This document shows positions 13,895 through 60,871 of a stretch of 64,000 nucleotides of DNA, one piece after another. The stretch is from positions 1,632,001 to 1,696,000 of the forward strand of contig OX638340.1 in the NCBI GenBank assembly GCA_951812955.1, in the 5' to 3' direction. The notes beneath the pieces are model-generated. The model saw only the letters and a list, made by a program, of their open reading frames with translations. It had not been told where the DNA came from and made no database searches. Both the position numbers and the translations under genes were made by a program. The stretch comes from an uncultured Gemmatimonadota bacterium. GTDB lineage: Bacteria; JAAXHH01. Position 1 is the first letter of the stretch. The number at the start of each line of letters is the position of its first letter.

Positions 13895-15505
13895 TTACGT
13901 GTCCGCGTTCGACGGCGACTGTGCCGCCACGTGCGCGGCAAACCCCGAGCCGGCCTCTGCGAACAGGTTGTACACGCTCGACGCGCCGGCCTTTTTGAGT
14001 ACCTCGATCTCATCGGGAAACCTTGCCGTGGCGGCGACCCGGCCGTAGAAGGAGGAAGCCTTGAGCTGGTCGAGGACGGCGAGGTTGGCGGCCAGACTGG
14101 GTAATGCCAGCATCACCAGTTCGAGGGTATGGGCGGCCTGAACGCGGTTCCAGAAGTCCGTGTCGGTGGGATCACCGAGCAGTACGTGGCGGTCCATCGA
14201 ATGCTGCCTCTCCACCCTTACCGGATCGATATCCACGCCGACGACGGTATCGCCGTACAATTGATGCATATTGTCGTATGCCGCGCTGCCCACGCGGCCC
14301 ATGCCTATGATGGCGATCGTCGCTCCACCTGTATCGAGAGGCTGGTCATCGGCAAGACGCTCTGCTTTCTGAAAACGGTCCCATACAGCCCGGTGTCGAG
14401 CGTAGATCCTGTGTGCGGCGACGTTGAGACCCGCCGAGATGACACAGGACAGCGCCAGGGCGATCGCGGTGACGATCAACCAGAGGCCGTCGATCCAGCC
14501 ATTGGCCACGCCGACGGTCGCGACGATGAGTCCGAATTCGCTGAAGTTGGTCAGGTTCAGCGTCGCGAGCAACGAGGTTCGGGCACGAAGCTTAAACGCT
14601 GCCAATAGTCCGAAGAACAACGCCGACTTCAGAAATACCAGCGGCGTGACTGCCGCGCCGATGAGTACGGCTTCCAGTGTCAGCGGGCCGGAGAGCCCGA
14701 TGGACAGAAAGAAGGCAAGCAGGAACAGGTCCTTGAACCCGAGCATGGTCTTTGCCATTTCGTTGGACTTTGCACTGTTGGCGATCAGTGCGCCCAGGGC
14801 GAGTGCGCCCAGGTCGCCCTTCAGTCCGACCAGCTCGAAGATTTCCGCGCCGCCCAGTGCGAAGAGCAGTCCGCAAAGCACCAGGAGCTCACCATGGCCG
14901 GCTTTCTGAAGAACAAAGAGCAGCAACGGCCGCGCAGGAATTAGGAGCAGGACCAGCAACGCCCATAGGGACGGCCACATGCCCCCCGAGATTGTAAGAA
15001 AAGCCACGGCGGCCAGGTCCTGCACGATGAGAATACCGACCGCGATACGGCCATGCAGCGAGGCGGTCTCCCCCTTGTCCTCCAGGACCTTCACGACGAA
15101 GACCGTACTCGAAAAACTGAGTGCAAAGGCGATCAGCAAAGACTGGTAGAGTCCATTGCCCGAAAAGGAAGGGGCGTTCAGGAGGGCGAGGATAACGAGG
15201 GCCGTGCCGAGGGCTAGCACGACAAGCGTCATGTGCAGGCCGGTGACGGCCCAGACCTGCGGCCGCGCGAAGGTCCTCAGATTGAGCTTGAGGCCGACGA
15301 TGAAAAGCAGCAGCGTGATCCCGAGGTCCGACAGCTTCTGGAGCATATCCCCGCTGGCGATGCCGATCAGGTTGAGCACGAAACCGGCGGCGAGGAATCC
15401 CACAAGGGGTGGCAACCCGGCGGACCTGGACAGCAGACCCAGCACGAACGCCACGGCAAGCCATGCGAGGTCACCCATCGCAATGACGATCCACCCGAAA
15501 TCCAT
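13895..15505 (-). CDS. Monovalent cation:proton antiporter-2 (CPA2) family, KefB/KefC-like K+ efflux protein with C-terminal RCK/TrkA-N domain
   Basis: About 12 TM segments, then a Rossmann motif (IAIIGMGRVGSAAYDNM). 536 aa. Confidence 0.8.
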   Translation of the reverse strand: MDFGWIVIAMGDLAWLAVAFVLGLLSRSAGLPPLVGFLAAGFVLNLIGIASGDMLQKLSDLGITLLLFIVGLKLNLRTFARPQVWAVTGLHMTLVVLALGTALVILALLNAPSFSGNGLYQSLLIAFALSFSSTVFVVKVLEDKGETASLHGRIAVGILIVQDLAAVAFLTISGGMWPSLWALLVLLLIPARPLLLFVLQKAGHGELLVLCGLLFALGGAEIFELVGLKGDLGALALGALIANSAKSNEMAKTMLGFKDLFLLAFFLSIGLSGPLTLEAVLIGAAVTPLVFLKSALFFGLLAAFKLRARTSLLATLNLTNFSEFGLIVATVGVANGWIDGLWLIVTAIALALSCVISAGLNVAAHRIYARHRAVWDRFQKAERLADDQPLDTGGATIAIIGMGRVGSAAYDNMHQLYGDTVVGVDIDPVRVERQHSMDRHVLLGDPTDTDFWNRVQAAHTLELVMLALPSLAANLAVLDQLKASSFYGRVAATARFPDEIEVLKKAGASSVYNLFAEAGSGFAAHVAAQSPSNADT

Positions 15506-15908
15506 TATGCCGCCTTTCCTGTCAATGGCCGTGTGTCTTTAGATATCATGTCGTCTTTTCATGTTAGCCTATGTCAGCCCATGTCAGCCCACGTCCGTTC
15601 AAGCTCGTCCACCGCGCCCACGCTTTTTCAAGCCAGTCTACGTTAGTCTCATGTTCGCCCATGCAATTTCCCACCCGTTACTTACGGTGTCAACGCAAAA
15701 CCACAGCCAGTCGGATTCCGACCTGTCACGCAGCCATGTCGGCGGCCGGGAAGTCCGCTTGACGCAGCTGATTTCTCTGGTTTCCTTGACGGAACTTGAT
15801 CCGCTGTCGACGCAAAAAAGATTGGAGCGGAAATGGGCGCAATGAAAAAGGCCGGCTCGAAACCGGTTCTGCTCTCAGGCGGAAACCCTCAGATCGCGTA
15901 CAGGAAAA

Positions 15909-24418: not shown

Positions 24419-24787
24419 TTACTGCTTCATGCCAGACGGTGAACTATCTTCCGTTTTTACATCGGATTCGTACTTAAAATATCCACTTATCACATCAATC
24501 TTAGTCTCTAACCTATCCATCTTCGTCTCTACCCGGTCAATCTTGTCTTCCAACTTAGTCTCTACCCGGTCAATTTTAGTCTCTACCCGGGCGATCTTGT
24601 CTACCAACTTCGTCTCTACCCGGTCAATCTTGTCTTCCAACTTAATCTCTACCCGGTCAATCTTGTCTTCCAATCTCGACAGTTGATCCCGTGTGCCGGA
24701 CTCTACGAATACATACACAGCAACACAGCCCGTTATCACGGCGGCTTTCATGACTACGTTCATCCAGGATTTCCTGGCCAATTTCAA
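24419..24787 (-). CDS. Small membrane-anchored coiled-coil protein built from 11-aa/7-aa tandem repeats (LEDKIDRVETK)
   Basis: N-terminal TM helix (VVMKAAVITGCVAVYVFV), then about six repeats encoded by 33- and 21-bp tandem DNA repeats at ~24496..24685. Confidence 0.5.
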   Translation of the reverse strand: MKLARKSWMNVVMKAAVITGCVAVYVFVESGTRDQLSRLEDKIDRVEIKLEDKIDRVETKLVDKIARVETKIDRVETKLEDKIDRVETKMDRLETKIDVISGYFKYESDVKTEDSSPSGMKQ

Positions 24788-33587: not shown

Positions 33588-34526
33588 TCAAGCCGCCGGC
33601 TTGCCCCGTTCCGCCGTGATCTTCCTCCCCGGCCTGAAGTACGTCTGCAGGACTTCCAGGAAACTCCGGGCCGCTCGTGACAGGTACCGCCCTTTTAGGT
33701 AGATCGCGCCCATCTTCTGCCGCGGACGGTTTCGAAAGTCGCTGATGGACACCTGCGCGAGCGTGCCGTTTTCCAGCTCTTCCTGGATGGCGACGGAGGG
33801 AACGATGGACAGGCCCGCCTCGATGCGCACGAAGTGCTTGATTACTTCGATCGAACTCAGTTCCATCGCCACGTCGAGCCGCACCCTGGATTGCTCGCAC
33901 AAATCGTCGATCAGCTTCCGGGAGGCGCAGTGCTGGTCGAGCAGGATCAGCGGATATTGCTCCATATCCTTGAGATGCACGGTCCGCCGGTCCGCCAGCG
34001 GATGACCTGGCGGCGTGATCAGCACGTCATGGCGGGAGAACAGCGGGATCGCCTCGATCTCCCGGGGCAGATAGGCCAGCGTGACCACGCCGAGGTCCAC
34101 CTCGCCGTCGACCACTGTCTGGATGGTCCGCAATGACGTGGCATTCTTTACGACGATGTCGATTCCGGGATAGCGGTCCTGGAAGGACTTGAGTATGGCC
34201 GGCAGGCGGTAGCATCCGGTGGTGTCCGACGTGCAGAGCACGAGACGGCCGGCCTCGAGGCGATCCAGGTCTTCCAGTTCCTGAACGGCCTCTTTCATCA
34301 GTCCTTCCATCTCACTCATGTATTTAAGCAGTACCTTCCCTGCCTCGGTGAGCGCGAGATGGCGGGTCGTCCGATGGAACAGTGGCTGGCCGATTTCGCC
34401 TTCGAGCTTGGCCACCTGGATGCTCACGGCCGACTGGGACCGGAAGAGGGCTTTTGCCGCCAGGGAAAAACTGCCGTGACGGGCTACGGCATGAAATGCG
34501 ACGGCTTGATCGTAGGACAGGTTCAT
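33588..34526 (-). CDS. LysR-family transcriptional regulator
   Basis: N-terminal HTH (SFSLAAKALFRSQSAVSIQVAKLE) and a C-terminal LysR substrate-binding domain. Divergent from the downstream IMPDH-family gene. Confidence 0.9.
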   Translation of the reverse strand: MNLSYDQAVAFHAVARHGSFSLAAKALFRSQSAVSIQVAKLEGEIGQPLFHRTTRHLALTEAGKVLLKYMSEMEGLMKEAVQELEDLDRLEAGRLVLCTSDTTGCYRLPAILKSFQDRYPGIDIVVKNATSLRTIQTVVDGEVDLGVVTLAYLPREIEAIPLFSRHDVLITPPGHPLADRRTVHLKDMEQYPLILLDQHCASRKLIDDLCEQSRVRLDVAMELSSIEVIKHFVRIEAGLSIVPSVAIQEELENGTLAQVSISDFRNRPRQKMGAIYLKGRYLSRAARSFLEVLQTYFRPGRKITAERGKPAA

Positions 34527-34637: not shown

Positions 34638-34697
34638 TGGTTGACTCGAAAGTTGACTCGAAAGTGGACTCGAAAGTGGACTCGAAGAAGGACCCGT
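34638..34697. repeat. 12-bp tandem direct repeat, 5 copies (T[TG]GACTCGAAAG), in the LysR / IMPDH-family divergent intergenic region
   Basis: Seen directly: TGACTCGATTGG TTGACTCGAAAG TTGACTCGAAAG TGGACTCGAAAG TGGACTCGAAGA. An AT-rich tract lies just upstream (34540..34610). Confidence 0.6.
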
Positions 34698-41028: not shown

Positions 41029-41714
41029 TGTTCATCTCCGAGATCTTCCATTCCATACAGGGCGAGGGCCTGCTGACCGGCGTTCCGTCCGTTTTCATCC
41101 GCACCTCCGGATGCAACCTGCGCTGCCGCTGGTGCGATACACCCTACACCTCCTGGTCGCCCGAAGGAAAGGAGCGGTCCGTGGATGAGATCATGGCGGC
41201 AATCGGTGACTTTCCGTCTCGTCACGCCGTGATCACCGGGGGCGAGCCGCTGCTCATGAAGGACCTGCCTGAACTTACGAAAAGACTCGGCGACGGAGGA
41301 TACCACGTCACCATCGAAACCGCGGGTACCGTGTTTGGCGACCTGCGCTGTGACCTGGCCTCCATCAGTCCCAAGCTGTCCAATTCCACGCCGTGGGCCG
41401 AGGAGGACGGTAAGTTCGCCCGGAGTCACGAACGGCTCAGAATCAACCTCCCCGTCCTGGGCAGGTTCATGGCGGCCTATCCCTACCAGTTGAAATTCGT
41501 GGTCGACCACCAGGACGACCTGGACGAAGTCGAATCGCTGATTTTGGAGCTGGAAGGGGTCGACCGAACCCGGGTGCTGCTCATGCCCCAGGGGCGGACC
41601 GCCGGGGAGTTGAGCAGCAGGGGCGCCTGGGTTGCCGAGGCCTGCAAGTCGCGCGGCTTCCGGTACTGCCCCCGGGTGCACATCGATCTCTACGGGGACA
41701 CCCGCGGGACTTGA
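41029..41714 (+). CDS. queE: 7-carboxy-7-deazaguanine synthase (radical SAM)
   Basis: MFISEIFHSIQGEGLLTGVPSVFIRTSGCNLRCRWCDTPY matches the QueE N-terminus and CxxxCxxC cluster. I chose the start at 41029; the ORF track extends to 40941. Confidence 0.85.
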
Positions 41715-41955
41715 CTTCTTGCCAATTCTTGCTTGTCTGACGGCCCTTTCCGGCATATCTTGTGCGGTTGCGGGGAAACCGGCCGGATTGGCCGGATCGG
41801 CATGTTGACCAGGCCTGAACATCGACGTGCGGGAGCCCGCTGAATAACTCGCGGCCCGGAGGCTGCCGGGGCCTGGAGGCTGCCGGGGCGAGACGGGCCG
41901 CATCGAGACGGAACGGGCATCATCGGATCAAGACGCGCCTCATCAGGGAGCAGAT

Positions 41956-42924
41956 ATGGACGACCATGGCAGGGACTGGGACCGGGGACTCGTTAGCTAT
42001 CCGGATCCGAACGTCGAGATCATCGACGACCGGTTCAAACCCTACGTGATTCACACGGCGGGGATCGAGCGGCTGTTCACCGGTACTCGGTGGTCGGAAG
42101 GACCCGTGTGGATCGGCGACGCCCGGTGCCTGGTGTGGAGCGACATCCCGAACAACCGGATGCTCCGCTGGGACGAAGAGACGAGCGACGTCAGCGTCTT
42201 CCGGCTGCCGTCCAACAACACGAACGGCAATACGCGCGACCGTCAGGGCCGGCTGGTCTCCTGCGAACATGATTCCCGCCGGGTGACCCGCACCGAACAC
42301 GACGGGACGATTACCGTGCTGATCGATCGGTTCGACGGCAAGCGGCTCAACGCGCCGAACGACGTGGTGGTGCGTTCCGATGGTTCGATATGGTTCACCG
42401 ACCCGGGGTACGGCATCCTGATGAATTACGAAGGACACAAGGCCGAATTCGAACAGCCCACCCGCGTGTATCGCCTGGACCCGGTCACGGGCGATGCGAC
42501 GGTCATCGCGGATGACTTCCTGAGACCCAACGGCATTTGCTTCTCCCCCGACGAATCACGTCTATACGTTGTAGATACAGGCGCCTCCCACGATCCAGAC
42601 GGCCCCGCCCACATCCGGGTGCTGGATATCGATGGCGACCGGGTTACGAATTCGCGGGTGTTCGCCGACATGAAACCGGCCTCGTCCGACGGCGTTCGGA
42701 CGGACGTGGACGGCAACCTCTGGGCCGCTTCGGGTTGGGGCGGACCCGAAACGAACGGCGTGATCTGTTTTTCGCCGGAAGGCGACAGGCTCGGCATGAT
42801 CCACCTTCCCGAACCCTGCGCGAACCTTTGCTTCGGCGGCGTGAAGAAGAACCGCCTGTTCATGACCGCCAGCCAGTCCCTGTACGCCCTTTACTTAGAA
42901 ACCCAGGGAGCGCAACGGCCGTGA
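41956..42924 (+). CDS. SMP-30/gluconolactonase/LRE-family protein
   Basis: Six-bladed propeller signature segments (EGPVWxxxxxxLxWSDI ... NGICFSPDESRLYVVDT). Confidence 0.8.
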   Translation: MDDHGRDWDRGLVSYPDPNVEIIDDRFKPYVIHTAGIERLFTGTRWSEGPVWIGDARCLVWSDIPNNRMLRWDEETSDVSVFRLPSNNTNGNTRDRQGRLVSCEHDSRRVTRTEHDGTITVLIDRFDGKRLNAPNDVVVRSDGSIWFTDPGYGILMNYEGHKAEFEQPTRVYRLDPVTGDATVIADDFLRPNGICFSPDESRLYVVDTGASHDPDGPAHIRVLDIDGDRVTNSRVFADMKPASSDGVRTDVDGNLWAASGWGGPETNGVICFSPEGDRLGMIHLPEPCANLCFGGVKKNRLFMTASQSLYALYLETQGAQRP

Positions 42925-43730
42925 GCGATCTTCATGCATCCGATACCGGATCCATGCTCTTATTCGATTTCGACGGGGTACTGCTGAACTCCGTCGTAGA
43001 GATGTCTATTACGGCTTACAACACGGTCACCGGCGGTCTCGCTACTTCTCCAGACGACCTGCCCGGCAACGCGGCGGAGCTGTTTGTGACCAACCGGTAC
43101 CACGTCCAACCGGCCGGTGACGCGATCAACCTGATGACCTGGTGTATAGACAATGCCGGCCTGCCCGGCGACCACCGGCTGGAACCGGAGGAATACCTGG
43201 CGATCCGCGAGGCGTCGGACGTCCCCCTGAAGGAACGTACGGGCAGTTTCTTCGCAGGCCGAAAGCGGTTAGTCACTCAAGATCCGGTCCAGTGGGCGTC
43301 GCTCAACACGGTGTACCAGCCGGTCTGGGATGTATTGAAAGGACAGGGCGCCGAAGGGATCGTGATCCTTACCAACAAAAACCGGGAAGCCACCGTGACC
43401 CTGTGTCACCACTTCGGCCTTGCCGTCCGGGACGGAAACGTGTACTCGGGCGATCACGGAACGACCAAGATCGAGAATCTGCTCGCGATCCGGGCGCGTT
43501 TCGAACGGGAACGCTACGGATTCATCGACGACTCCATCGGCAACCTGGAGGAGCTCGATGCCCATTTCAACAGGGATGAACCCCTTCTCGAACTGATGCT
43601 GGCTTCCTGGGGTTACATAGGACCGGACGACCACGCGGCGGCCCGCCGCGCCGGTTATGCCATCTACGAACAGGCCGACCTCATCGCGCGAGTCACCTCG
43701 ATGAAGGGCGTCGAACTGGGCAGCTCATAA
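42921..43730 (+). CDS. HAD-like hydrolase
   Basis: MLLFDFDGVLLNS motif I. Start uncertain: GTG at 42921 overlaps the upstream stop, or ATG near 42950. The listed ORF at 42537 is an out-of-context extension. Confidence 0.55.
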   Translation: MSDLHASDTGSMLLFDFDGVLLNSVVEMSITAYNTVTGGLATSPDDLPGNAAELFVTNRYHVQPAGDAINLMTWCIDNAGLPGDHRLEPEEYLAIREASDVPLKERTGSFFAGRKRLVTQDPVQWASLNTVYQPVWDVLKGQGAEGIVILTNKNREATVTLCHHFGLAVRDGNVYSGDHGTTKIENLLAIRARFERERYGFIDDSIGNLEELDAHFNRDEPLLELMLASWGYIGPDDHAAARRAGYAIYEQADLIARVTSMKGVELGSS

Positions 43731-43789
43731 ATCGGAAACCAGGCAGCTCATGAATCGGAAACCAGGCAGCTCATGAATCGGAAACCAGA
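43721..43789. repeat. 23-bp tandem direct repeat x3 (CAGCTCAT[AG]AATCGGAAACCAG[GA]) spanning the upstream stop codon and the start codon of the downstream kinase gene
   Basis: Copies at 43721-43743, 43744-43766 and 43767-43789. Copy 1 contains the HAD-gene stop (TAA). Copy 3 contains the ATG of the next gene. Copy 2 contains an out-of-frame ATG. Confidence 0.7.
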
Positions 43790-44831
43790 CAGCCACTCCG
43801 GCAGCGAGCTTGAGGTCATCGAACGTTTCCCGGAACTGCGCGCCCTCGTCGTCGGGGACATCATGCTCGACGTTTACGAGTTCTGCCGAACCGGGGACAG
43901 CAAGCCCATCGATTCGGAGAAGGCGGGAAAGCGGGCCTACAAGGCGCAGGAAACGATCAAGGTGCTCGGCGGCGCGGGCAACGTGGCGGCCAACCTGGCT
44001 TCCCTGGACGTGCAGACCACCCTCGTGGGCGTGACGGGCAACGACGAACATTACTTTAAGATCCGCGATCTCGCGGACGATCTGGAAATACGCCACGGCC
44101 TGATCCGGGACGAGCGCCGCCCCACCACGATCAAGGCCCGCCTGTACCTGGACGACGACTACCTGCTGCGGCGCGATACCGAGTGCGCCGACCGGATCGA
44201 CGGCGGCACCTCGGCCGCGCTGGCGAAGGAAGTCCTTCGCGCACTGCCGGAGACCGACGTCGTGATCCTCAGCGATTATGACAAAGGGGTCTTTACCGCG
44301 GCGAACACCGGTCAGATCATCCGCGAATGCCGCCTCAATGAAATCCCCGTCGTGGTTGATTTCAAGCCGGGCAACCGGGCGTTCTTCGCCGGCGCGGACA
44401 TCATCGCCCCGAACGCCGCCGAGGCCGCCGAGCTTATCGGCGGGTTTTCCATGGACCGGCTGGGTTCCGACTGCCGGCGGCTGCATGCTTCGCTGGGTTG
44501 CCGGAACACAGTCGTCACGCTGGGAGAGCAGGGACTCTGCGGCGTGGGGCCGGACGGCTTCTTCCATGTACGGGGCCATCGCGTCAAACCCGTGGACAAG
44601 GTCGGTTGCGGCGACACCGTGCGGGCGGGGCTGGCCATCGGCGCGGCGCTGGGGCTTCCCCTCGAGGAGTCGGGGGAACTCGCAAACGACGCGGCGACGG
44701 TCATCGTGCAGAAACCGGCTACCTCGGTCCTTTCCCGGGGAGAACTCAGGAATTTCGTATCGGGAAAACAAGAAGTCAGTCCACCACCCGCGGCGGCGCT
44801 GGTCGGACGCGGGGGAGCGTCCGACGGGTAA
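43773..44831 (+). CDS. PfkB-family sugar kinase, RfaE/HldE domain-I-like (heptose-7-phosphate kinase-like)
   Basis: LVVGDIMLDVY N-terminal motif, GGAGNVAANLASL, and the C-terminal GDT motif (VGCGDTVRAGLA). Confidence 0.65.
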   Translation: MNRKPDSHSGSELEVIERFPELRALVVGDIMLDVYEFCRTGDSKPIDSEKAGKRAYKAQETIKVLGGAGNVAANLASLDVQTTLVGVTGNDEHYFKIRDLADDLEIRHGLIRDERRPTTIKARLYLDDDYLLRRDTECADRIDGGTSAALAKEVLRALPETDVVILSDYDKGVFTAANTGQIIRECRLNEIPVVVDFKPGNRAFFAGADIIAPNAAEAAELIGGFSMDRLGSDCRRLHASLGCRNTVVTLGEQGLCGVGPDGFFHVRGHRVKPVDKVGCGDTVRAGLAIGAALGLPLEESGELANDAATVIVQKPATSVLSRGELRNFVSGKQEVSPPPAAALVGRGGASDG

Positions 44832-44914
44832 GGACGGACGGCCTGGCTCGGGAACTACCCGCAGCCTGGGACGTAAAATCGTGTACATTCACCGCAAAAC
44901 GAGTTAGTATCGAC

Positions 44915-45802
44915 ATGAAAGTCAAAGCATACGAGAGGATATCCGGCAGGGGAGGGGTTGTGGTCCGTCTCATATTGTTTTTTGCAAGCTTCGCACTGGT
45001 ATCGACGGCCTGCGAATCCGGTCCCACCGTGGACGGGACGGACGCCGAAACCTTCGACGCATCCATCGCCGCGATCAAGGCGGCGCTTCCCGAGGAAGAC
45101 CAGGAGAAAATCGACGAAGTGATAGAGGCGTTCGAGTACCTCTATAGCGACAACGTGATCAGTTCGCTGAACGCTTCCGAGGCCATCCGGAACCGGATTC
45201 AGAGCCGTCTGGACGGCATGGACGTGGGGGAAATCTTCGCGGAGTGGACCGACCGGGTGGACAAGGCGATCGAATCCCTCGAGGCGAAGAAGCAAAATAC
45301 GGACTCCGCCATGGAGAACCTGAAGGACGTACGGGTCAGAGGACCCGAATACTACGTGCAGCGCGGGCAGTCCGTCGTGAAAATCAACATCCACAACCGG
45401 ACGGATCACACCATCTCCAGGGTGTATTTCCGCGGCACCCTATGGCAACAGCAGCCGAGAAAGTGGCTTCTTGAGGACGATTTCAACTACAATATCCGGC
45501 GTACGGAGGGCAAGAACCTGGGACCTGGCGATCGGGCCGAATGGAACTTCGCCCTGCTTTCACCCGTCTGGAAGCGAGCCCCGGAGGACGTGGACAACCT
45601 CTCCCTGAGCGTGATCGTGACACGGATCGACGGGGGGCAGGAACAACCCATCTTTGACGCGTTTACGGACCGTTTCACGACCAAGGACTCGCGCAGGCTC
45701 AGGAGGCTGGTCTCTCTCAAGGAATCTATCGGGACGCTTGAGCCGGAACCCGATCCCGAGGAGACATCCCAATCGCTCGGCTGGACCTCCAACATGAATT
45801 GA
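44915..45802 (+). CDS. Hypothetical lipoprotein
   Basis: Signal plus lipobox (LVSTACES). No recognised family. The listed ORF at 44498 is an N-terminal over-extension. Confidence 0.4.
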   Translation: MKVKAYERISGRGGVVVRLILFFASFALVSTACESGPTVDGTDAETFDASIAAIKAALPEEDQEKIDEVIEAFEYLYSDNVISSLNASEAIRNRIQSRLDGMDVGEIFAEWTDRVDKAIESLEAKKQNTDSAMENLKDVRVRGPEYYVQRGQSVVKINIHNRTDHTISRVYFRGTLWQQQPRKWLLEDDFNYNIRRTEGKNLGPGDRAEWNFALLSPVWKRAPEDVDNLSLSVIVTRIDGGQEQPIFDAFTDRFTTKDSRRLRRLVSLKESIGTLEPEPDPEETSQSLGWTSNMN

Positions 45803-45878
45803 CAAGGGCAAGCCAGGCCGGTCCGTCCGTCACCGACGCGCTCCGCTGATATCTGTCTCCTTCGTCCGCTTTCCCCTG

Positions 45879-46871
45879 TTATCCCCTGTCGTCACCTTCC
45901 CTGGCTGATACAATATACCTGTCCACCGTATCGGCGAAGATCAGGAACTGCGGGTTGTTTCGGTGGGTTGCCCTCAGGGCCAGTACCGTAACGCCTTCCG
46001 ATCCCTCTGTATGTACGCCCCGGCAGTACGCCTCCATTAACGCGGGTTCAAGTGGTTCTCTCGAGTCGTGGAAGCTATCCGCGAAAAAGCCGAAAATCAT
46101 GCCCACGATACCGATGCCCACCATCATCATCAACACGCTGGCCCCCTGTCCCAGGGGGGTGACCGGGTACTTGTCGCCGTATCCCACGGTCGTGGAGGTC
46201 ACCACGGCCCACCAGATGCTGTCGCCGTATACACTGAAGACCTCAGGCTGGGCGCGGCGTTCCACCTCGTAGATCACGGTCGAGCTGATCATCAGGTACA
46301 TGATGGTGATAAGGAAAATCGGTATGATCCGTATCCGACTGTGGTACATGGACCGGGCGAACTCCGCCAGTTTTGGGCTGTATCGGAACATCTTGAGCAG
46401 CCGTAGTGTCCGGGCGCCCCGGACCAGTCCAAGCTGCTCCTGGGTCAGACCGGGGTAGAATCCGATCCAGAAGGGCAGGATGCTGATCAGGTCGATCACC
46501 CCCAGAGAACTGACCAGGTACCTGCCCTTGCGCGGCGACAGCCTGATGCGCAGCAGATATTCCAGGGTGAAGAACCCCGCGATGACCCGCTCGATCCAGA
46601 TAAACCCCGCCCAGGCGCCGGCGTCCAGACTGCTGCGCGTCTGGGTGTACTGGAGCTCGATGAAGTAGAGTATCATGTTGACGGCCAGTACGTAGGGTCC
46701 GAAACGGTGTACGGCCGCAAGCACGGAGGACAGGAATCCCGGCATGGCGTGCCTCCTTGGCGAATGTGATGGGCTTATTCCAATAGGTTTGTTTTTGATG
46801 CTACAAATACTGAGATGGTTTGGCCAATTTAGCGTAAGTGTCTCAAATAACAAAGGCCCACCGTCCGCCAA
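45879..46871 (-). CDS. Voltage-gated-type potassium channel (ion-transport family)
   Basis: K+ selectivity filter TTVGYGD, an S4-like segment with spaced Arg residues (LVRGARTLRLLKMFR), and 6 TM segments. Confidence 0.75.
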   Translation of the reverse strand: MADGGPLLFETLTLNWPNHLSICSIKNKPIGISPSHSPRRHAMPGFLSSVLAAVHRFGPYVLAVNMILYFIELQYTQTRSSLDAGAWAGFIWIERVIAGFFTLEYLLRIRLSPRKGRYLVSSLGVIDLISILPFWIGFYPGLTQEQLGLVRGARTLRLLKMFRYSPKLAEFARSMYHSRIRIIPIFLITIMYLMISSTVIYEVERRAQPEVFSVYGDSIWWAVVTSTTVGYGDKYPVTPLGQGASVLMMMVGIGIVGMIFGFFADSFHDSREPLEPALMEAYCRGVHTEGSEGVTVLALRATHRNNPQFLIFADTVDRYIVSAREGDDRG

Positions 46872-51829: not shown

Positions 51830-52276
51830 TCACCGCCTGAATCTGCCAGAACCGCCTCGCCCCATTTGCGATGCTTCCTCCACCAGTTTATCGAACGTCT
51901 TCATCGCGTCCGGCGAAAGCACACCCTTCAGGTTCGTCTTGAACTGCTTTTCGTTTTCCTCCAGTTGTTCACGCAGCCATTTCCAGTCTTCGGTCTTCCT
52001 GGCCTGTTCCAGCAGCGCGTCCTTCTGCGTTGATGCTTCCTTGACCATGGCGCGCAGTTGCAGCACCTGATCGTCGGTCGTATCCATGCGTATACTAAGC
52101 ACGTGCCAGATCTGATCGACACGGAAGGTGTTCATCGCTTGCATTTGTTCCAACATGGCACTGTTCTGTCCCCGGCCGCCCATTCGGCCGAATCCGCCTC
52201 GCTGCGCGGCCGCGTCGTTGGCGATATAGGCAATCATCATCAGGCCGATTACGGCAAGGTGAAGACGGTATTTCAT
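51830..52276 (-). CDS. Periplasmic LTXXQ-motif protein (Spy/CpxP-family-like), copy 3
   Basis: Signal peptide from MKYRLHLAVIGLMMIAYIANDAAAQ. Helical, with a TTDDQVLQL motif. The listed ORF begins at 52366. Confidence 0.5.
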   Translation of the reverse strand: MKYRLHLAVIGLMMIAYIANDAAAQRGGFGRMGGRGQNSAMLEQMQAMNTFRVDQIWHVLSIRMDTTDDQVLQLRAMVKEASTQKDALLEQARKTEDWKWLREQLEENEKQFKTNLKGVLSPDAMKTFDKLVEEASQMGRGGSGRFRR

Positions 52277-52369
52277 GCTATGACTCCCTTCAATTAGATG
52301 CCGCGGTCGGACTGGGGATCCTTCCGCGGCGGGTTCTCGCTCCAATAACCAGCGGTCAGCTAACAATTG

Positions 52370-52424
52370 AACGGTGAACTTTCATTCTAACGGTGGACTT
52401 TCATTCTAACGGTGGACTTCACTT
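52370..52424. repeat. 19-bp tandem direct repeat (AACGGTG[AG]ACTTTCATTCT) x2.8 between LTXXQ genes 2 and 3
   Basis: Seen directly at 52370-52388, 52389-52407 and 52408-52424 (degenerate). Confidence 0.55.
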
Positions 52425-53088
52425 AACGCCGGTCGCGGAATGATTCACGGCCTCCCCGGCGTCCGCGCATCCCGGAATCCCGGCGTCCGTCGCGCCGGTC
52501 GCGGAATGATTCGCGCAGCTCTTCCTGCTGTTCCGGTGTCAGCACGTTCTTGACCTCGGCGCGGAAGACGGCGCCTCGCTCGAACACGCTGCCCTGCGCC
52601 CTGGACACGGCCGCGGCCAGCTCTTTCACTTTTTCCAGGTCCGGGCTGGTCTCGCCCATCAACTCGTTCAGATCAATCCGTGCGAGCCTCGAATCGGCGC
52701 GAAGCTGGACCATGTCCCGTGCATACGCTGAACGCAGCGTGCTGATCTGTTCCTGTTGCTCGTCTGTGAGTTCGATATTGTTCAATGCCCTGCGGGACAG
52801 GTCGTTCCCGCGCGACCGGTCGTTCCCGCGGGACCTGCCGGTACGTGCTGCGTCGTTATCGGCAAGATTGTGGTCCAGGGCGTCGGCGAACTCTCCCGCT
52901 GATCCTGATTCCGCGAACTCGGCAATTAGCTCGAATTCGGATTCTGCCTCGTGCTCCGCGCCCGCCGTGGCGGCTTCGTGATGGCCGCCGCCCTCATTAT
53001 GACTGATCTTTCCCGCAGCATCGAAAGCCCAGGCCAGAACGGCCACGGACAGCGTGCCTGCGAAGATTCCTGTAATCATCTTTTTCAT
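52423..53088 (-). CDS. Periplasmic LTXXQ-motif protein (Spy/CpxP-family-like), copy 2
   Basis: Signal MKKMITGIFAGTLSVAVLAWA. Two LTxEQ motifs (LTDEQQEQI, LTPEQQEEL). His/Glu-rich N-terminal region. Confidence 0.55.
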   Translation of the reverse strand: MKKMITGIFAGTLSVAVLAWAFDAAGKISHNEGGGHHEAATAGAEHEAESEFELIAEFAESGSAGEFADALDHNLADNDAARTGRSRGNDRSRGNDLSRRALNNIELTDEQQEQISTLRSAYARDMVQLRADSRLARIDLNELMGETSPDLEKVKELAAAVSRAQGSVFERGAVFRAEVKNVLTPEQQEELRESFRDRRDGRRDSGMRGRRGGRESFRDRR

Positions 53089-53166
53089 GCTGTAGCTCCT
53101 TTCGAAATACACCCTGACTGAAATGGTCGCGATCTCCGGAGACCGTTTTCGTGCTTCTCTACATGA

Positions 53167-56195: not shown

Positions 56196-57839
56196 ATGCA
56201 ATACGGTTTCATCATCGACAACAGGAAATGTATCGGGTGCCACGCCTGCACCGTCGCGTGCAAGGCCGAGCACGAGGTGCCCCTCGGCGTCAACCGGACC
56301 TGGGTGAAATACATCGAGAAGGGGACCTATCCGAACACGACCAGGCATTTCTCGGTCATGCGGTGCAATCACTGCGAGGACGCCCCCTGCGTGGAGATCT
56401 GCCCGGTGACGGCGCTGTATACGCGGAAAGACGGCATCGTGGATTTCGATCCACGCAGATGCATCGGATGCAAGGGCTGCATGCAGGCCTGCCCGTACGA
56501 CGCGCTCTACATCGACCCGGACACCCATACGGCGGCAAAGTGCAACTACTGCGCCCATCGGGTGGATATCGGCCTCGAACCCGCCTGCGTGAACGTCTGC
56601 CCTGAACACGCCATCATATCCGGCGACATGGACGATGATTCCACGGAGATCGCCCAGTTGCTCGCGAAGGAACAGGTGACGGTCCGCAAGGTGGAAAAGG
56701 ACACGAAACCCCGCCTGTACTATATCGACGGCGACGAAGCCTCGTTGACGCCCGGGGAAACCGCGACGTCCGACAATTACATGTGGAGCTCACAATCGGA
56801 CGGCGTGGGCCACTTCGCAAGATACATCGAGGAAAGGACCGCCCGCGCGAATCCGGAGGACATGGTCAGACAGCTTGGTGGGGAGAACCAGGGCGGACAG
56901 GTTGGCGGCGGGCAAGATGGCGCCGGCGTACGCGGCGAACAAGATAGCGACAAAGATGAGAGATCCGGCAAAGGCGCCGCGGCGCGCAGGGTCTACGACG
57001 CGCCGGACAAGGGCGTGCTGTGGGGAAACGACGTAGCCGCATACGTTTGGACCAAGGCCATCTCGGCGGGTGCTTTCCTCCTTCCCTTCGCGGCCTCGGT
57101 CCTGGGCATGACGATAGATCCTTTTCTTTCCTGGTTCGGAAGTACCATCGCCCTGACCTTTCTCCTGGCCACGACGATCCTCCTGGTGAGCGATCTGACC
57201 CAGCCCAGACGATTTCTCTATGTACTGCTCCGTCCTCAGTGGAAATCCTGGCTCGTGCTCGGAGGCTACGCGTTGACCCTCTACGGGCTGGCGCTCACGC
57301 TGTGGGCCGTGGCAATGTGGACCGGCCGAACCGGGGCTGCCGAAATCATCGGCTGGATCGCGGCCGTACTGGCGGTCCTTACGGCTGTATATACGGCCTT
57401 TCTATTCGCCCAGGCCAAAGGACGGGATTTCTGGCAAAGCCCCACGCTCGTCCTGCACATGCTGCTCCACGCGGTGCTCGCCGGCGCGGGGGTTTTCGCT
57501 ATCGCGCTTCTGTTCAGTGCGTCGGGCGAAGCGTGGACCGCCTTCGTCCGGAATACGCTGATCGTCGCCATCATCCTGAACCTGCTCGTAATCGCATCTG
57601 AAATGCTGACCCCCCATCCGACCGCCGACGCGCGGAAAGCCGTGCAGGCCATCGTCCGCGGCCGGTACCGGGGGTATTTCTGGATCCTGGGCATCGCCCT
57701 GGGCAACATAGCGCCCGTCGTACTGGCCTGGGCCGGTGGCGAAACGATGCTCGCCGCGGCCGGCGTGGGCGTGCTGATCGGCCTGTACGCGACCGAGTAC
57801 GTCTGGGTCAGGGCGCCGCAGGACATACCGCTGAGTTGA
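56196..57839 (+). CDS. Fusion of a four-cluster [4Fe-4S] ferredoxin subunit (PsrB/DmsB/SoeB-like) with an NrfD/PsrC-like integral-membrane quinone-interacting subunit; no signal peptide
   Basis: Four Cys clusters (CIGCHACTVAC, CNHCEDAPCVEICP, CIGCKGCMQACP, CNYCAH...CVNVCP), then ~8 hydrophobic TM helices in the C-terminal ~280 aa. The protein starts directly with the Fe-S domain (MQYGFIIDNRKCIGC). Confidence 0.8.
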   Translation: MQYGFIIDNRKCIGCHACTVACKAEHEVPLGVNRTWVKYIEKGTYPNTTRHFSVMRCNHCEDAPCVEICPVTALYTRKDGIVDFDPRRCIGCKGCMQACPYDALYIDPDTHTAAKCNYCAHRVDIGLEPACVNVCPEHAIISGDMDDDSTEIAQLLAKEQVTVRKVEKDTKPRLYYIDGDEASLTPGETATSDNYMWSSQSDGVGHFARYIEERTARANPEDMVRQLGGENQGGQVGGGQDGAGVRGEQDSDKDERSGKGAAARRVYDAPDKGVLWGNDVAAYVWTKAISAGAFLLPFAASVLGMTIDPFLSWFGSTIALTFLLATTILLVSDLTQPRRFLYVLLRPQWKSWLVLGGYALTLYGLALTLWAVAMWTGRTGAAEIIGWIAAVLAVLTAVYTAFLFAQAKGRDFWQSPTLVLHMLLHAVLAGAGVFAIALLFSASGEAWTAFVRNTLIVAIILNLLVIASEMLTPHPTADARKAVQAIVRGRYRGYFWILGIALGNIAPVVLAWAGGETMLAAAGVGVLIGLYATEYVWVRAPQDIPLS

Positions 57840-58009
57840 GTAGGACTTACCGCTGAGTTAAGAAGGACATAGCACCGAGCTGACATAAACGCTGCCTGGC
57901 CCGTTCCGGGAATCGGCACGGCCGGAAACTGCCCCGGGTTCGACGACATTCCACTGCCGCGGGCTCGACGACACAATGAAGGAAGACACAGCAGACAGGA
58001 ATCACCAAC

Positions 58010-60871
58010 ATGTCCATACGCCATAAACCGGGACTGATCGAATCGCTGGCCGAGAAAGTCGGCCTGATTCCCAACCTGCACGAAGAGGACGGACCGGATC
58101 TGCCCAGTCTCACCGAAGGCGGCGCGCTCACGGACTATCCGCCCCCTGACCAGTGGGACGACTGGGTGGAGTACGAGGCGCAGGACTGGCCGAAACAACA
58201 GGCCAAACACTACATGGTGGTGCCGACGGCCTGCTTCAACTGCGAGGCCGGGTGCGGACTCCTCAGCTACGTCGACAAGGAGACGATGGAAGTCCGCAAG
58301 TTCGAGGGGAACCCCTACCATCCCGCCAGCCGGGGACGCAATTGCGCCAAGGGTCCAGCGACCATAAACCAGATCCGTGACACGGACCGCATACTATACC
58401 CCATGCGCCGGTCCGGCGCCCGGGGAAGCGGGGAGTGGGAGCAGGTGTCCTGGGATACGGTGCTGGACGACATCGCGGCCCGGATACGGGAGCGGCTGCA
58501 ACAGGGCGCGAACAACGAAATCGCCTATCACGTGGGCCGGCCCGGGGCCGAAGGCTACATCGACCGCGTGCTCAAGGCCTGGGGCGTCGACGGGCACAAC
58601 AGCCACACCAACATCTGCTCGTCGGGCGCCCGCTTCGGCTACGCCCTATGGCATTTCTTCGACCGGCCGTCGCCCGACCACGCCAATGCGCGGTTTATCC
58701 TGCTGATCAGCGCTCACCTGGAATCGGGGCACTACTTCAATCCCCACGCACAGCGGATCATCGAGGGCATGATGAACGGCGCGAAGCTTGCCGTCATGGA
58801 CCCGAGACTGTCCAATACGGCCAGCATGGCCGACCACTGGTTGCCCACCTATCCCGGCAGCGAGGCCGCGGTATTGCTGGCCATGGCCAACGTCATCCTG
58901 CAGGACGGCCTTTACGATGCGGAGTTCATGAAGACGTGGGTGAACTGGCAGACCTACCTGGAGAAGGAACACCCGGAAGCACCGCGCACCTTCGATCGGT
59001 TCATCGAAGCGCTCAAGTCGGTCTACAGCGAGTACACGCCCGAGTTCGCCGAACAGGAGAGCGGCGTGCCGGCTGCCCAGATTGCCGAGATCGGCCGCGA
59101 GATCGGCCGGGCGGGATCGCGGTTCGCCACCCACAACTGGCGCAGCGCGGGTAGCGGAAACGCCGGCGGCTGGGCCGTGGCCCGCTGCCTCCACTTCCTG
59201 AACGTACTCACCGGCAGCGTGGGCACGGAGGGTGGGACCTCGCCGAGCGGGTGGAACAAGTTCAAACCCAACGTATTCGACCATCCCCCGGATCAGAAGT
59301 TTTGGAACGAACTGCATTTCCCGAAGGAATACCCCCTCTCCCACTACGAGATGAGTTTTCTCCTCCCCCATTTCCTGAAAGAAGGACGGGGGAAGCTGGC
59401 TGTCTACTTCACCCGGGTGTTCAATCCCGTGTGGACGTACCCGGACGGGTTTACCTGGGTCGAAGCGCTCCGCGATGAGGAGAAGGTCGGGCTGCACGCG
59501 GCCCTGACGCCTACGTGGAACGAGACCGCCTTTTTCGCCGACTACGTACTGCCCATGGGCCACGCCAGCGAACGCCACGACATTATCAGCTACGAGACCC
59601 ACTCGGGCACCTGGATCGGTTTCCGCCAGCCCGTCCTGCGCGAGGCCCGGCGTCGCATGGGCGACCCGGTGGATTTCACCTACGAGGCGAACCCCGGCGA
59701 GGTATGGGAAGAGGACGAGTTCTGGATCGAGCTGTCCTGGCGCATCGATCCCGACGGCAGCCTGGGGATCAGGGACCACTTCATCTCGCCGTACAGGCCG
59801 GGTGAGAAAATCACCATCGACGAATACTACCGGTACATCTTCGACAACGTGGACGGACTGCCCGAGGCCGCCGCGAAAGAGGATCTTTCAACTCTGGATT
59901 ACATGCGAAAGTACGGCGCCTTCGAGGTGGAGAAGACGGCCTACGCGAAACATCTCAAGACACTGGACGACGAGGCCGTCGCGGGCGCTAAGGTCGATCC
60001 GGAGACCAATGCCCTGGTCGCAGGCGGCAAGACCGTGGGCGTGATGGTGGACGGCGCGCCGCGGGCGGGCTTCCCCACGCCGTCTCTGAAGCAGGAGTTC
60101 TATTCCCAGACCATGGTGGACTGGGGCTGGCCGGAGTACGCCATACCCACCTACATCAAGAGCCACGTGCATCCCGACGAACTCGACCGTGAGAACGGCG
60201 AGTACCCGCTGGTGCCCACCTTCAGGCTGCCCACACTGATCCACTCGCGGTCCGGCAACGCCAAGTGGCTCAACGAGATCTCCAACCGCAATCCCGTGTG
60301 GATGCACCGGCGGGACGCCGAAAAGATGGGCATTGGCACGGACGACCTGGTCCGGGTGACCACCGAAATCGGCCATTTCGTCGACCGCGTCTGGGTCACC
60401 GAGTCCATGAAACCCGGAGTCGTCGCCTGCTCCCACCATCTCGGGCGCTGGCGGCGCAAACAGGACGCGGACGGAAACCGCTGGTCGGTGAACCTGGTGG
60501 ATATCCAGGAAGAGGACGGCGGGAAGTGGCGCATGCGTGTGATGGACGGAATCAGACCCTATGAAAGCGCAGACCGCGACTCCTCGCGCATCTTCTGGCG
60601 GGACGGCGGCGTGCACCAGAACATCACCTTCCCCGTGCACCCAGATCCCGTGAGCGGCATGCACTGCTGGCACCAGAAGGTCAAAGTGGAAAAGGCCCGC
60701 GAAGAGGACGCCTACGGGGACGTGATGGTGGATACGGAGAAGTCCTTCGAAGTCTACCGCGCATGGCTGGACCAGACCCGGCCCGCGCCAGGTCCGGGCG
60801 GCCTGCGCCGTCCCCTCTGGTTCAACCGACCCCTGCGTCCGGCCGAAGAGACCTTCTACCTGCCTGAATAG
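58010..60871 (+). CDS. Molybdopterin (bis-MGD) oxidoreductase catalytic subunit, DMSO-reductase superfamily; no Tat signal; SoeA-like candidate
   Basis: 953 aa. N-terminal Fe-S cluster motif CFNCEAGCGL...C. Size and domain order are those of MopB/Molybdopterin/Molydop_binding proteins. The N-terminus (MSIRHKPGLIESLAEKVG...) has no RR motif or hydrophobic h-region. Confidence 0.8.
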   Translation: MSIRHKPGLIESLAEKVGLIPNLHEEDGPDLPSLTEGGALTDYPPPDQWDDWVEYEAQDWPKQQAKHYMVVPTACFNCEAGCGLLSYVDKETMEVRKFEGNPYHPASRGRNCAKGPATINQIRDTDRILYPMRRSGARGSGEWEQVSWDTVLDDIAARIRERLQQGANNEIAYHVGRPGAEGYIDRVLKAWGVDGHNSHTNICSSGARFGYALWHFFDRPSPDHANARFILLISAHLESGHYFNPHAQRIIEGMMNGAKLAVMDPRLSNTASMADHWLPTYPGSEAAVLLAMANVILQDGLYDAEFMKTWVNWQTYLEKEHPEAPRTFDRFIEALKSVYSEYTPEFAEQESGVPAAQIAEIGREIGRAGSRFATHNWRSAGSGNAGGWAVARCLHFLNVLTGSVGTEGGTSPSGWNKFKPNVFDHPPDQKFWNELHFPKEYPLSHYEMSFLLPHFLKEGRGKLAVYFTRVFNPVWTYPDGFTWVEALRDEEKVGLHAALTPTWNETAFFADYVLPMGHASERHDIISYETHSGTWIGFRQPVLREARRRMGDPVDFTYEANPGEVWEEDEFWIELSWRIDPDGSLGIRDHFISPYRPGEKITIDEYYRYIFDNVDGLPEAAAKEDLSTLDYMRKYGAFEVEKTAYAKHLKTLDDEAVAGAKVDPETNALVAGGKTVGVMVDGAPRAGFPTPSLKQEFYSQTMVDWGWPEYAIPTYIKSHVHPDELDRENGEYPLVPTFRLPTLIHSRSGNAKWLNEISNRNPVWMHRRDAEKMGIGTDDLVRVTTEIGHFVDRVWVTESMKPGVVACSHHLGRWRRKQDADGNRWSVNLVDIQEEDGGKWRMRVMDGIRPYESADRDSSRIFWRDGGVHQNITFPVHPDPVSGMHCWHQKVKVEKAREEDAYGDVMVDTEKSFEVYRAWLDQTRPAPGPGGLRRPLWFNRPLRPAEETFYLPE

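Follow-up and report, generated by a model that had tools for sequence, protein, structure and literature searches.

Variable copy number of a gene junction: apparent tandem duplication of an overlapping stop/start site between two genes of an uncultured Gemmatimonadota bacterium

What becomes of two neighbouring genes when the few nucleotides that hold the end of one and the beginning of the next are present three times over? The question is raised by a stretch of 64,000 nucleotides (nt) from an uncultured Gemmatimonadota bacterium (assembly GCA_951812955.1, contig OX638340.1, positions 1,632,001 to 1,696,000 of the forward strand), here called the window, in which a 23-nt unit is repeated head to tail between genes for a HAD-like hydrolase and a PfkB-family sugar kinase. 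Coordinates are those of the whole window, position 1 being its first letter, and the array lies on the plus strand, in the same orientation as the genes that flank it. A first-pass annotation of the window saw in the array either a recent local duplication or a slipped-strand or recombination switch, reasoning that gain or loss of a unit whose length is not a multiple of three would change the frame relationships between upstream stop and downstream start. Comparison with related loci makes it likely that the array is a variable-number tandem repeat (VNTR) that arose by tandem duplication of a junction in which stop and start codons overlap as NTGA, and that it is tolerated as a neutral or nearly neutral polymorphism.

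Direct reading places three head-to-tail copies of the unit at 43721-43789, and the same array can be read in another register at 43720-43788. Tandem Repeats Finder reports 43719-43793 with a period of 23, 3.3 copies, 96% matches, 0 indels and a score of 136, which ranks third among the program's 45 rows for the window and first outside an array at 24494-24673 that is described further below. The three copies seen in the first-pass annotation are borne out by both approaches, as is what it had found in each: the HAD stop codon and an ATA in place of ATG in copy 1, an out-of-frame ATG opening an 8-codon peptide in copy 2, and in copy 3 the ATG of a 352-amino-acid (aa) kinase. The features of the junction, including its small open reading frame (mini-ORF), are as follows.

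42921-43730, plus strand: HAD-like hydrolase gene, 269 aa from GTG 42921, its TAA (43728-43730) lying inside copy 1
43714-43724, plus strand: left flank AACTGGGCAGC, repeated directly but imperfectly 23 nt downstream in the AACCAG[G/A]CAGC that ends and follows each unit
43720-43742, plus strand: repeat copy 1, GCAGCTCATAAATCGGAAACCAG, holding the HAD stop TAA; the former ATG is now ATA, so that no mini-ORF starts here
43743-43765, plus strand: repeat copy 2, GCAGCTCATGAATCGGAAACCAG, holding the mini-ORF ATG at 43750
43750-43776, plus strand: mini-ORF of 8 codons, MNRKPGSS followed by TGA, beginning 19 nt past the HAD stop
43766-43788, plus strand: repeat copy 3, GCAGCTCATGAATCGGAAACCAG, holding the true kinase start, ATG 43773
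43789-43793, plus strand: partial fourth copy, ACAGC, with microhomology to the unit start GCAGC
43773-44831, plus strand: PfkB-family sugar kinase gene, 352 aa (PF00294, E=1.2e-29; 104 bits against a cutoff of 25.8)

In the register that begins at 43721 the copies read:

43721-43743, plus strand: CAGCTCATAAATCGGAAACCAGG
43744-43766, plus strand: CAGCTCATGAATCGGAAACCAGG
43767-43789, plus strand: CAGCTCATGAATCGGAAACCAGA

Read in this way, the units are followed by the partial fourth copy as CAGC. A repeat search finds the same structure as 34-nt direct-repeat copies starting at 43714, 43737 and 43760. The unit, allowing up to three mismatches, occurs at three sites in the 64-kb window, all of them in the array (0.00 expected from 100 shuffles), and a period of 23 in 3.3 head-to-tail copies falls within the class of roughly 10-100 nt to which VNTR units belong. 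The repeat search found no dyad symmetry or inverted repeat inside the array. An RNA element at the repeat was considered and rejected, there being no Rfam match at the junction at E <= 1 and a predicted fold no more stable than those of shuffled sequences (z = +1.44); a promoter made by the repeat was likewise rejected, there being no promoter-like (sigma-70-like) site in 41700-46000.

What, then, is the unit made of? Ten loci (L005-L014) with 63-85% kinase identity, obtained from a scan of species-representative genomes, provide an outgroup; the records of the relatives are titled as metagenome-assembled genomes of Gemmatimonadetes or Candidatus Latescibacterota. One copy of the unit is present in 10/10 of these loci, a long open HAD frame lies upstream of it, and the HAD TGA and kinase ATG share bases in ATGA, a spacing of -4 nt. 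A single copy with this overlap, found in ten related species, is thus the ancestral state. Every base of the unit can be aligned to the native junction of these single-copy loci, where the HAD gene has its 3' end and the kinase gene its 5' end, and the content of the unit is correspondingly the last HAD codons (..GSS), ATGA and the first five kinase codons (MNRKP). To judge from these alignments, the 23-nt unit is the native gene junction itself, duplicated in situ. The suggestion of a recent local duplication is therefore supported, since what has been repeated is the translation-initiation region of the single-copy relatives.

Do close relatives of the window share its three copies? Fifteen further loci from independent assemblies (Logan, ENA and NCBI), beyond the window itself, make up the repeat-bearing clade, and the number of copies (n) among them is distributed as follows.

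n=1: L084
n=2: L085, L086, L087, L088, L001, L003, L004, L083
n=2, with the first copy decayed and the HAD stop shifted 15 nt upstream: L002
n=3: the window, L089, L090
n=4: L091, L092, L093

One of these, L083, is the only extra locus to come from a metagenome scan with a degenerate pattern of the unit, and its array is identical to that of L004. Copy number consequently differs from one to four at an orthologous junction in loci whose local DNA is 93-97% identical to the window over 2-7 kb, as is expected of a VNTR. The variation extends to very similar genes: the kinase gene is 98.3-98.4% identical among the window (n=3), L085/L086 (n=2) and L084 (n=1), and L091 (n=4) is 97% identical to L001 and L003 (n=2). 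Neighbour-joining on the kinase gene groups the repeat-bearing loci as one monophyletic clade, within which at least five lineages must have changed copy number.

Mis-assembly is in principle a possibility for tandem repeats, and one explanation of the window would be that assembly or sequencing has added copies that the true genome lacks. The whole array, however, measures 69 nt, less than one short read, and arrays of two, three and four copies stand at the same site in different samples put together by different assemblers. Some of these agree exactly, an identical 3-copy array having been recovered in two separate assemblies (L089, L090) and an identical 4-copy array in another two (L092, L093), and L085 and L086, both with two copies, begin with the very unit, ATA variant included, that stands as copy 1 in the window. 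Independent assemblies with 2-, 3- and 4-copy arrays make an artefact very unlikely, to the point that we attach almost no weight to it, and the array is best read from these assemblies as a real VNTR. The first-pass annotation had named copy-number variation in related strains as a check on its proposal, and invariant copy number or an assembly artefact as what would refute it; the check proved positive, with 1, 2, 3 or 4 copies, and the worry is removed by the recurrence of 2- and 4-copy arrays in several assemblies and of the 3-copy array in L089 and L090.

How do the two genes accommodate such variation? The window reads, in order, HAD TAA, 19 nt, the mini-ORF MNRKPGSS, ATGA and the kinase gene, the first ATGA having become ATAA. 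The gap between the HAD and kinase genes is +42 nt, and the -4 NTGA pairing is found not between these two but between mini-ORF and kinase (43773-43776), where the TGA of the mini-ORF (43774-43776) overlaps the kinase ATG at 43773. This arrangement follows from the length of the unit. Because 23 is 24-1, that is, of the form 3k-1, any non-terminal copy that bears an ATG becomes an 8-codon ORF with its TGA on the next ATG, and a closed 8-codon ORF with its stop at +1 of the next ATG is indeed present in each such copy of all arrays. In L091 and in L092/L093 the result is a chain of HAD gene, three mini-ORFs and kinase gene in which every joint is ATGA. Since 23 + 1 is divisible by 3, moreover, what is the kinase frame in copy i serves as the HAD frame in copy i+1. 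The HAD frame ends in the first copy, or just before it (L002), and the kinase starts at the last ATG throughout n=1-4, so that the distance from HAD stop to kinase start goes from -4 to +19, +42 and +65 with copy number. Both proteins remain whole at n=1, 2, 3 and 4, with 352-aa kinases and 258-269-aa HAD proteins called. Added copies are accordingly frame-neutral, a 3k-1 period preserving the logic of the junction; by the same reasoning, a 3k period would have lengthened the kinase N-terminus and a 3k+1 period would have sent an out-of-frame ORF into the kinase gene.

The only coding change seen among the alleles is a D6G substitution in some kinases. Residue 6 is encoded at 43788-43790, where an A after the last unit gives Asp6 and a G gives Gly6, the latter form being found in L084, L087 and L089/L090. 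At n=3 the kinase ATG shares the HAD frame (43773 - 43728 = 45), with TAA and 14 sense codons between (43728-43775), and loss of TAA 43728-43730 would fuse the HAD and kinase proteins. No kinase homologue longer than 394 aa was found among the 120 best-scoring homologues listed.

These observations bear on the proposal that gain or loss of a copy turns the kinase or the HAD gene on or off by frame shift or phase variation. A period that is not a multiple of three, a copy number that varies and a relative frame of the two ORFs that changes with n (-4, +19, +42, +65) are all what such a switch would exhibit. The position of the array nevertheless prevents it from interrupting either ORF, the HAD frame stopping in or before copy 1 and the kinase starting at the last ATG; full-length proteins of both kinds occur at every copy number; and no promoter-like element runs across the array. 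The array shares with contingency loci a copy number that changes by slippage next to or within the 5' end of a gene. Contingency loci consist of units of 1-7 nt in long tracts and act by shifting a reading frame or a promoter spacer, whereas the array has 23-nt units in one to four copies, disrupts no ORF at any observed n and is accompanied by no detected promoter; neither ORF frame nor promoter spacing is altered by copy number as in a phase-variable contingency locus. A switch of this kind is thus highly improbable. The slipped-strand element of the first-pass proposal is supported, the switch is not, and the argument from a period not divisible by three is reversed by the 3k-1 length of the unit.

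If the array is a tolerated VNTR, how was it made and how does it change? The starting point would be a translationally coupled junction with HAD TGA and kinase ATG overlapping as ATGA. On either side of the unit stand the two members of an imperfect direct repeat, AACTGGGCAGC in front and AACCAGACAGC at and after the unit's end, which match at 8/11 bases and lie 23 nt apart, and the first duplication most likely occurred by slippage between these short repeats. Slipped-strand mispairing or unequal exchange between AACTGGGCAGC and AACCAGACAGC would duplicate a segment made up of the three final HAD codons, ATGA and codons one to five of the kinase. Later gains, losses and homogenisation, for which the 23-nt homology of the units themselves would serve, gave rise to alleles with n=1, 2, 3 and 4.

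Traces of such turnover are present in the arrays. Copies inside one genome share bases typical of their lineage, AATCGG in all copies of the window, AACCGG in L001/L004 and AACCAG in both copies of L002, which indicates concerted evolution, as expected of repeated gain, loss or conversion. The first copy that the window has in common with L085 and L086 implies that it differs from them by one extra internal unit, and a distinctive third copy (..GGATATCAG) common to L091 and L092 implies that part of the 4-copy array is old. The single-copy allele L084 has a G where the ancestral tail has an A (GAC, Asp, in the outgroups), matching the internal junction CCAG|GCAGC; such a base would remain if a multi-copy array had collapsed through exchange in the CAGC microhomology, and the Gly6 form of the kinase looks like a recombination scar of array contraction or conversion. 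The start codon of the first copy has changed in at least three to four lineages, to ATA in the window, L085 and L086, GTA in L089/L090, AAG in L002 and GTG in L087. ATGA has been kept in all six middle copies and in all copies of the diverged 4-copy arrays (L091, L092/L093).

An origin by insertion, rather than by duplication in situ, has a precedent in mycobacterial interspersed repetitive units (MIRUs), exemplified by the intercistronic MIRUs of senX3-regX3 in mycobacteria (Supply et al. 1997, as described in PMC12548453 and PMC4473831). Start codons are the sites at which MIRUs insert, and the small ORFs that they carry run in the direction of the genes on either side and overlap the adjacent stop and start codons by their ends, at -4 nt (PMC4473831, PMC12548453). 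The array is alike in having tandem units in the intercistronic region of co-oriented genes and a copy number that varies among strains; in its small co-oriented ORFs that overlap neighbouring stop and start codons; and in its want of dyad symmetry, with no inverted repeat and the fold z-score given above. MIRU units are roughly 46-101 bp long. That of the array is 23 nt, and its hosts are not mycobacteria but uncultured bacteria, with records that bear the label Gemmatimonadetes or Latescibacterota. MIRUs, furthermore, are interspersed at many loci and thought to be mobile, whereas matches to the array unit in the 64-kb window, and to its degenerate core in 93 loci, are confined to the junction, and in place of a foreign or mobile origin the unit shows derivation in situ from that junction. 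The mycobacterial MIRU-VNTR is therefore the closest analogue of the array, which is not itself a member of that class.

An inserted MIRU-like element, or a set of binding sites for a regulator such as a CsrA-type protein, for which the GGA present in each unit might speak, is accordingly hard to credit as the source of the repeat. Base for base, the unit has its homologue in the native junction of single-copy relatives, at the 3' end of the HAD gene and the 5' end of the kinase gene; it has no further site in the window when up to three mismatches are tolerated; its degenerate 17-nt core, CATGAAYCRGAAAYCAG, has 0 exact matches outside the junction in 93 fetched loci; and there are no hairpins presenting the GGA motifs. 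The mobile or interspersed element was rejected on its absence from the rest of the window and of the fetched loci. A literature search for an explicit precedent for tandem duplication of an overlapping stop/start junction brought up mainly mitogenome papers.

What might duplication in situ do to expression of the kinase? The NTGA overlap at -4 is the commonest architecture of translationally coupled genes; coupling works best at -4 to +3 nt and by about +40 nt has dropped 3-10 fold; ribosomes that scan on termination use the nearest start; and short ORFs can bring ribosomes to a downstream gene (PMC12548453). Pairs of this type are represented by the HAD/kinase junction of L005-L014 and L084 and by the mini-ORF and kinase of the window, which differs in that its two real genes are 42 nt apart, the gap being partly bridged by an 8-codon ORF. 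In the window, ribosomes ending at the HAD TAA (43728-43730) would meet the nearest start 19 nt on, at ATG 43750, translate MNRKPGSS, terminate at TGA 43774-43776 and be able to re-initiate on the kinase ATG (43773) that overlaps it. The array would in this manner replace direct -4 coupling by a spacer and a one-step relay. Kinase translation would then probably be somewhat below that of the 1-copy state, with neither protein switched off, and it is possible that copy number has a modest effect on translational coupling. The Shine-Dalgarno (SD) sequence of the kinase amounts to AGG at -9..-7, in a genome where AGGAG or GGAGG stands ahead of many ORFs, and weakness of this site in an SD-using genome is consistent with dependence on coupling. 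The array also resembles synthetic bicistronic designs, where the gene to be expressed is coupled to a short leader ORF (PMC12548453); these are engineered and have a strong SD of their own, whereas the leader ORFs of the array are natural by-products of duplication, variable in number and with a weak AGG.

From such considerations it is a short step to an adaptive translational rheostat, in which copy number has been selected to set the ratio of kinase to HAD hydrolase, each added copy contributing one more termination-reinitiation step or 23 nt of spacer and thereby a heritable, reversible fall in kinase translation. Repeated change of copy number among very close relatives, homogenised arrays, a kinase without a strong SD in an SD-using genome and the dependence of coupling efficiency on spacing (PMC12548453) would all accord with it, as would the retention of ATGA in the six middle copies and in L091 and L092/L093 despite 1-5 other substitutions per copy. 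That retention, however, is not significant: a hand count gives about 15 substitutions with 0 in 4 of 23 positions, or P ~0.06 before correction for shared ancestry. First-copy ATGs, moreover, have been lost in at least three lineages, and start-site accessibility is predicted to be about equal at all n. An array of one to four copies of a 23-nt unit also implies a slippage rate far under that of classical contingency loci. The rheostat is thus an unlikely explanation, though one that deserves to be kept in view, and it is doubtful that the chained 8-codon ORFs form a selected, heritable coupling relay in which n=1-4 acts as a stepwise, reversible dial of kinase against hydrolase. Differences between first and last copies disrupt ATG in 5/17 cases where 2.2 are expected, in small hand counts that are phylogenetically non-independent; these figures are suggestive only, and no claim is made for purifying selection on the relay or for selection against the first ATG.

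Several points weigh against the account of a tolerated, duplicated junction with a possible influence on coupling. The tree on which the number of lineages depends is that of one 960-nt gene, with recombination ignored, and the three copies of the window are an assembly count. A slippage origin stands on a flanking direct repeat of 8 of 11 nt and falls short of proof. As for the relay, we infer both translation of the mini-ORF and its effect on the kinase level; loss or change of the first-copy ATG in several arrays means that a complete relay is not required, and in a sample of this size the retention of ATGA in six middle copies carries no compelling statistical weight. The predicted unpaired probability round the kinase ATG, finally, is 0.46-0.61 for n=1-4 with no clear trend, and this near-constancy offers no structural reason for an effect on expression; a copy-number effect mediated by structure was set aside on the same figures. 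The polymorphism would on balance be tolerated because the 3k-1 period keeps the logic of the junction intact.

The junction lies in a cluster of co-oriented genes whose order, SGL, HAD-like and kinase, is the same in relatives, with a DUF6694-like protein next. The first gene of the cluster is:

41956-42924, plus strand: SMP-30/gluconolactonase/LRE-like (SGL) protein, 322 aa (PF08450, E=2.4e-53), preceded by an SD-like GGGAG

The most likely start of the HAD-like gene is GTG 42921, in GTGA overlap (42921-42924) with the TGA of the SGL gene; a 269-aa gene is called at this position in relatives, and the alternative start, ATG 42954, would give 258 aa. All three genes are joined, or were ancestrally joined, by -4 overlaps. 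The match of the HAD-like protein to PF00702 is weak, at 22.6 bits under a cutoff of 26.4. A protein search with the kinase returned 984 homologues, with close ones in uncultured bacteria; its N-terminus is MNRKPD, of which MNRKP is kept in homologues, and cluster member P0131 has the identical sequence. Among curated models the kinase comes closest to TIGR02198 (rfaE_dom_I, heptose-7-phosphate kinase), for which it scores 221 bits against a cutoff of 345. The description of the gene as heptose-kinase-like in the first-pass annotation is fair but unproven, PfkB membership being clear; the phrase denotes, on these scores, a resemblance to RfaE/HldE domain I and not an assignment. A minus-strand ORF at 43725-44888 (387 aa) is antisense to this well-supported kinase gene and was taken as a shadow ORF. 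The family has a second length-variable spot in some orthologues, among relatives and not in the window, where P0010, P0013, P0015, P0018 and P0025 carry an insertion of 20-42 residues, rich in Gly, Thr and Ser and of low complexity, after DYDKGVF (for example STGSGGTGHIGTGITGTGNTDTG).

Other tandem repeats of the window include some that also lie at gene boundaries, as listed here.

52370-52419, minus-strand context 52366-52425: 19-nt unit AACGGTGGACTTTCATTCT, 2.6 copies, 96% matches, intercistronic
57820-57871: 22-nt unit, 2.4 copies, 86% matches, including the stop codon of ORF 56196-57839
24494-24673: tandem array with periods of 21/33/54 and a score up to 181, the highest in the window
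15560-15595: 10-nt unit (minus strand GGGCTGACAT), 3.6 copies, in a 5' leader or promoter region
34643-34686: 12-nt unit GACTCGAAAGTG, 3.7 copies, 96% matches

The first of these sits exactly between the co-oriented minus-strand ORFs 52423-53112 and 51830-52366, and on the minus strand its units provide GTG/ATG starts and TAG stops from which short ORFs result immediately past the upstream TAA; a further duplicated gene junction may be present here. The repeat at 57820-57871, with copies ..CCGCTGAGTTGAGT and ..CCGCTGAGTTAAGA, lies ahead of ORF 58010-60871 and looks, from its sequence, like a duplicated gene end. The array at 24494-24673 is contained in the minus-strand ORF 24419-24787 (122 aa), its 33-nt period corresponding to an 11-residue protein repeat. 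The repeat at 15560-15595 precedes the minus-strand ORF 13895-15505, standing some 55-90 nt upstream of its ATG (15505), and that at 34643-34686 falls between candidate divergent ORF starts at 34526 (minus strand) and 34785 (plus strand).

Regardless of whether copy number has any effect on expression, the locus shows that an overlapping stop/start junction can be duplicated without harm to either gene, a 3k-1 unit turning extra copies into short closed ORFs that re-create the ATGA overlap. The chief value of the locus lies in its natural allelic series, which, with n=1-4 and with or without the first ATG in a near-identical background, constitutes a test set for models of termination-reinitiation and of scanning, and the copy number of the array offers a marker of strains in this uncultured bacterial lineage. 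A coupling relay, if true, would be an in-situ-born, non-mobile counterpart of the MIRUs. Thus, if copy number tunes expression, the array would be a non-mobile analogue of MIRU-VNTRs outside the mycobacteria; if it does not, the array would be an ordinary, tolerated VNTR.

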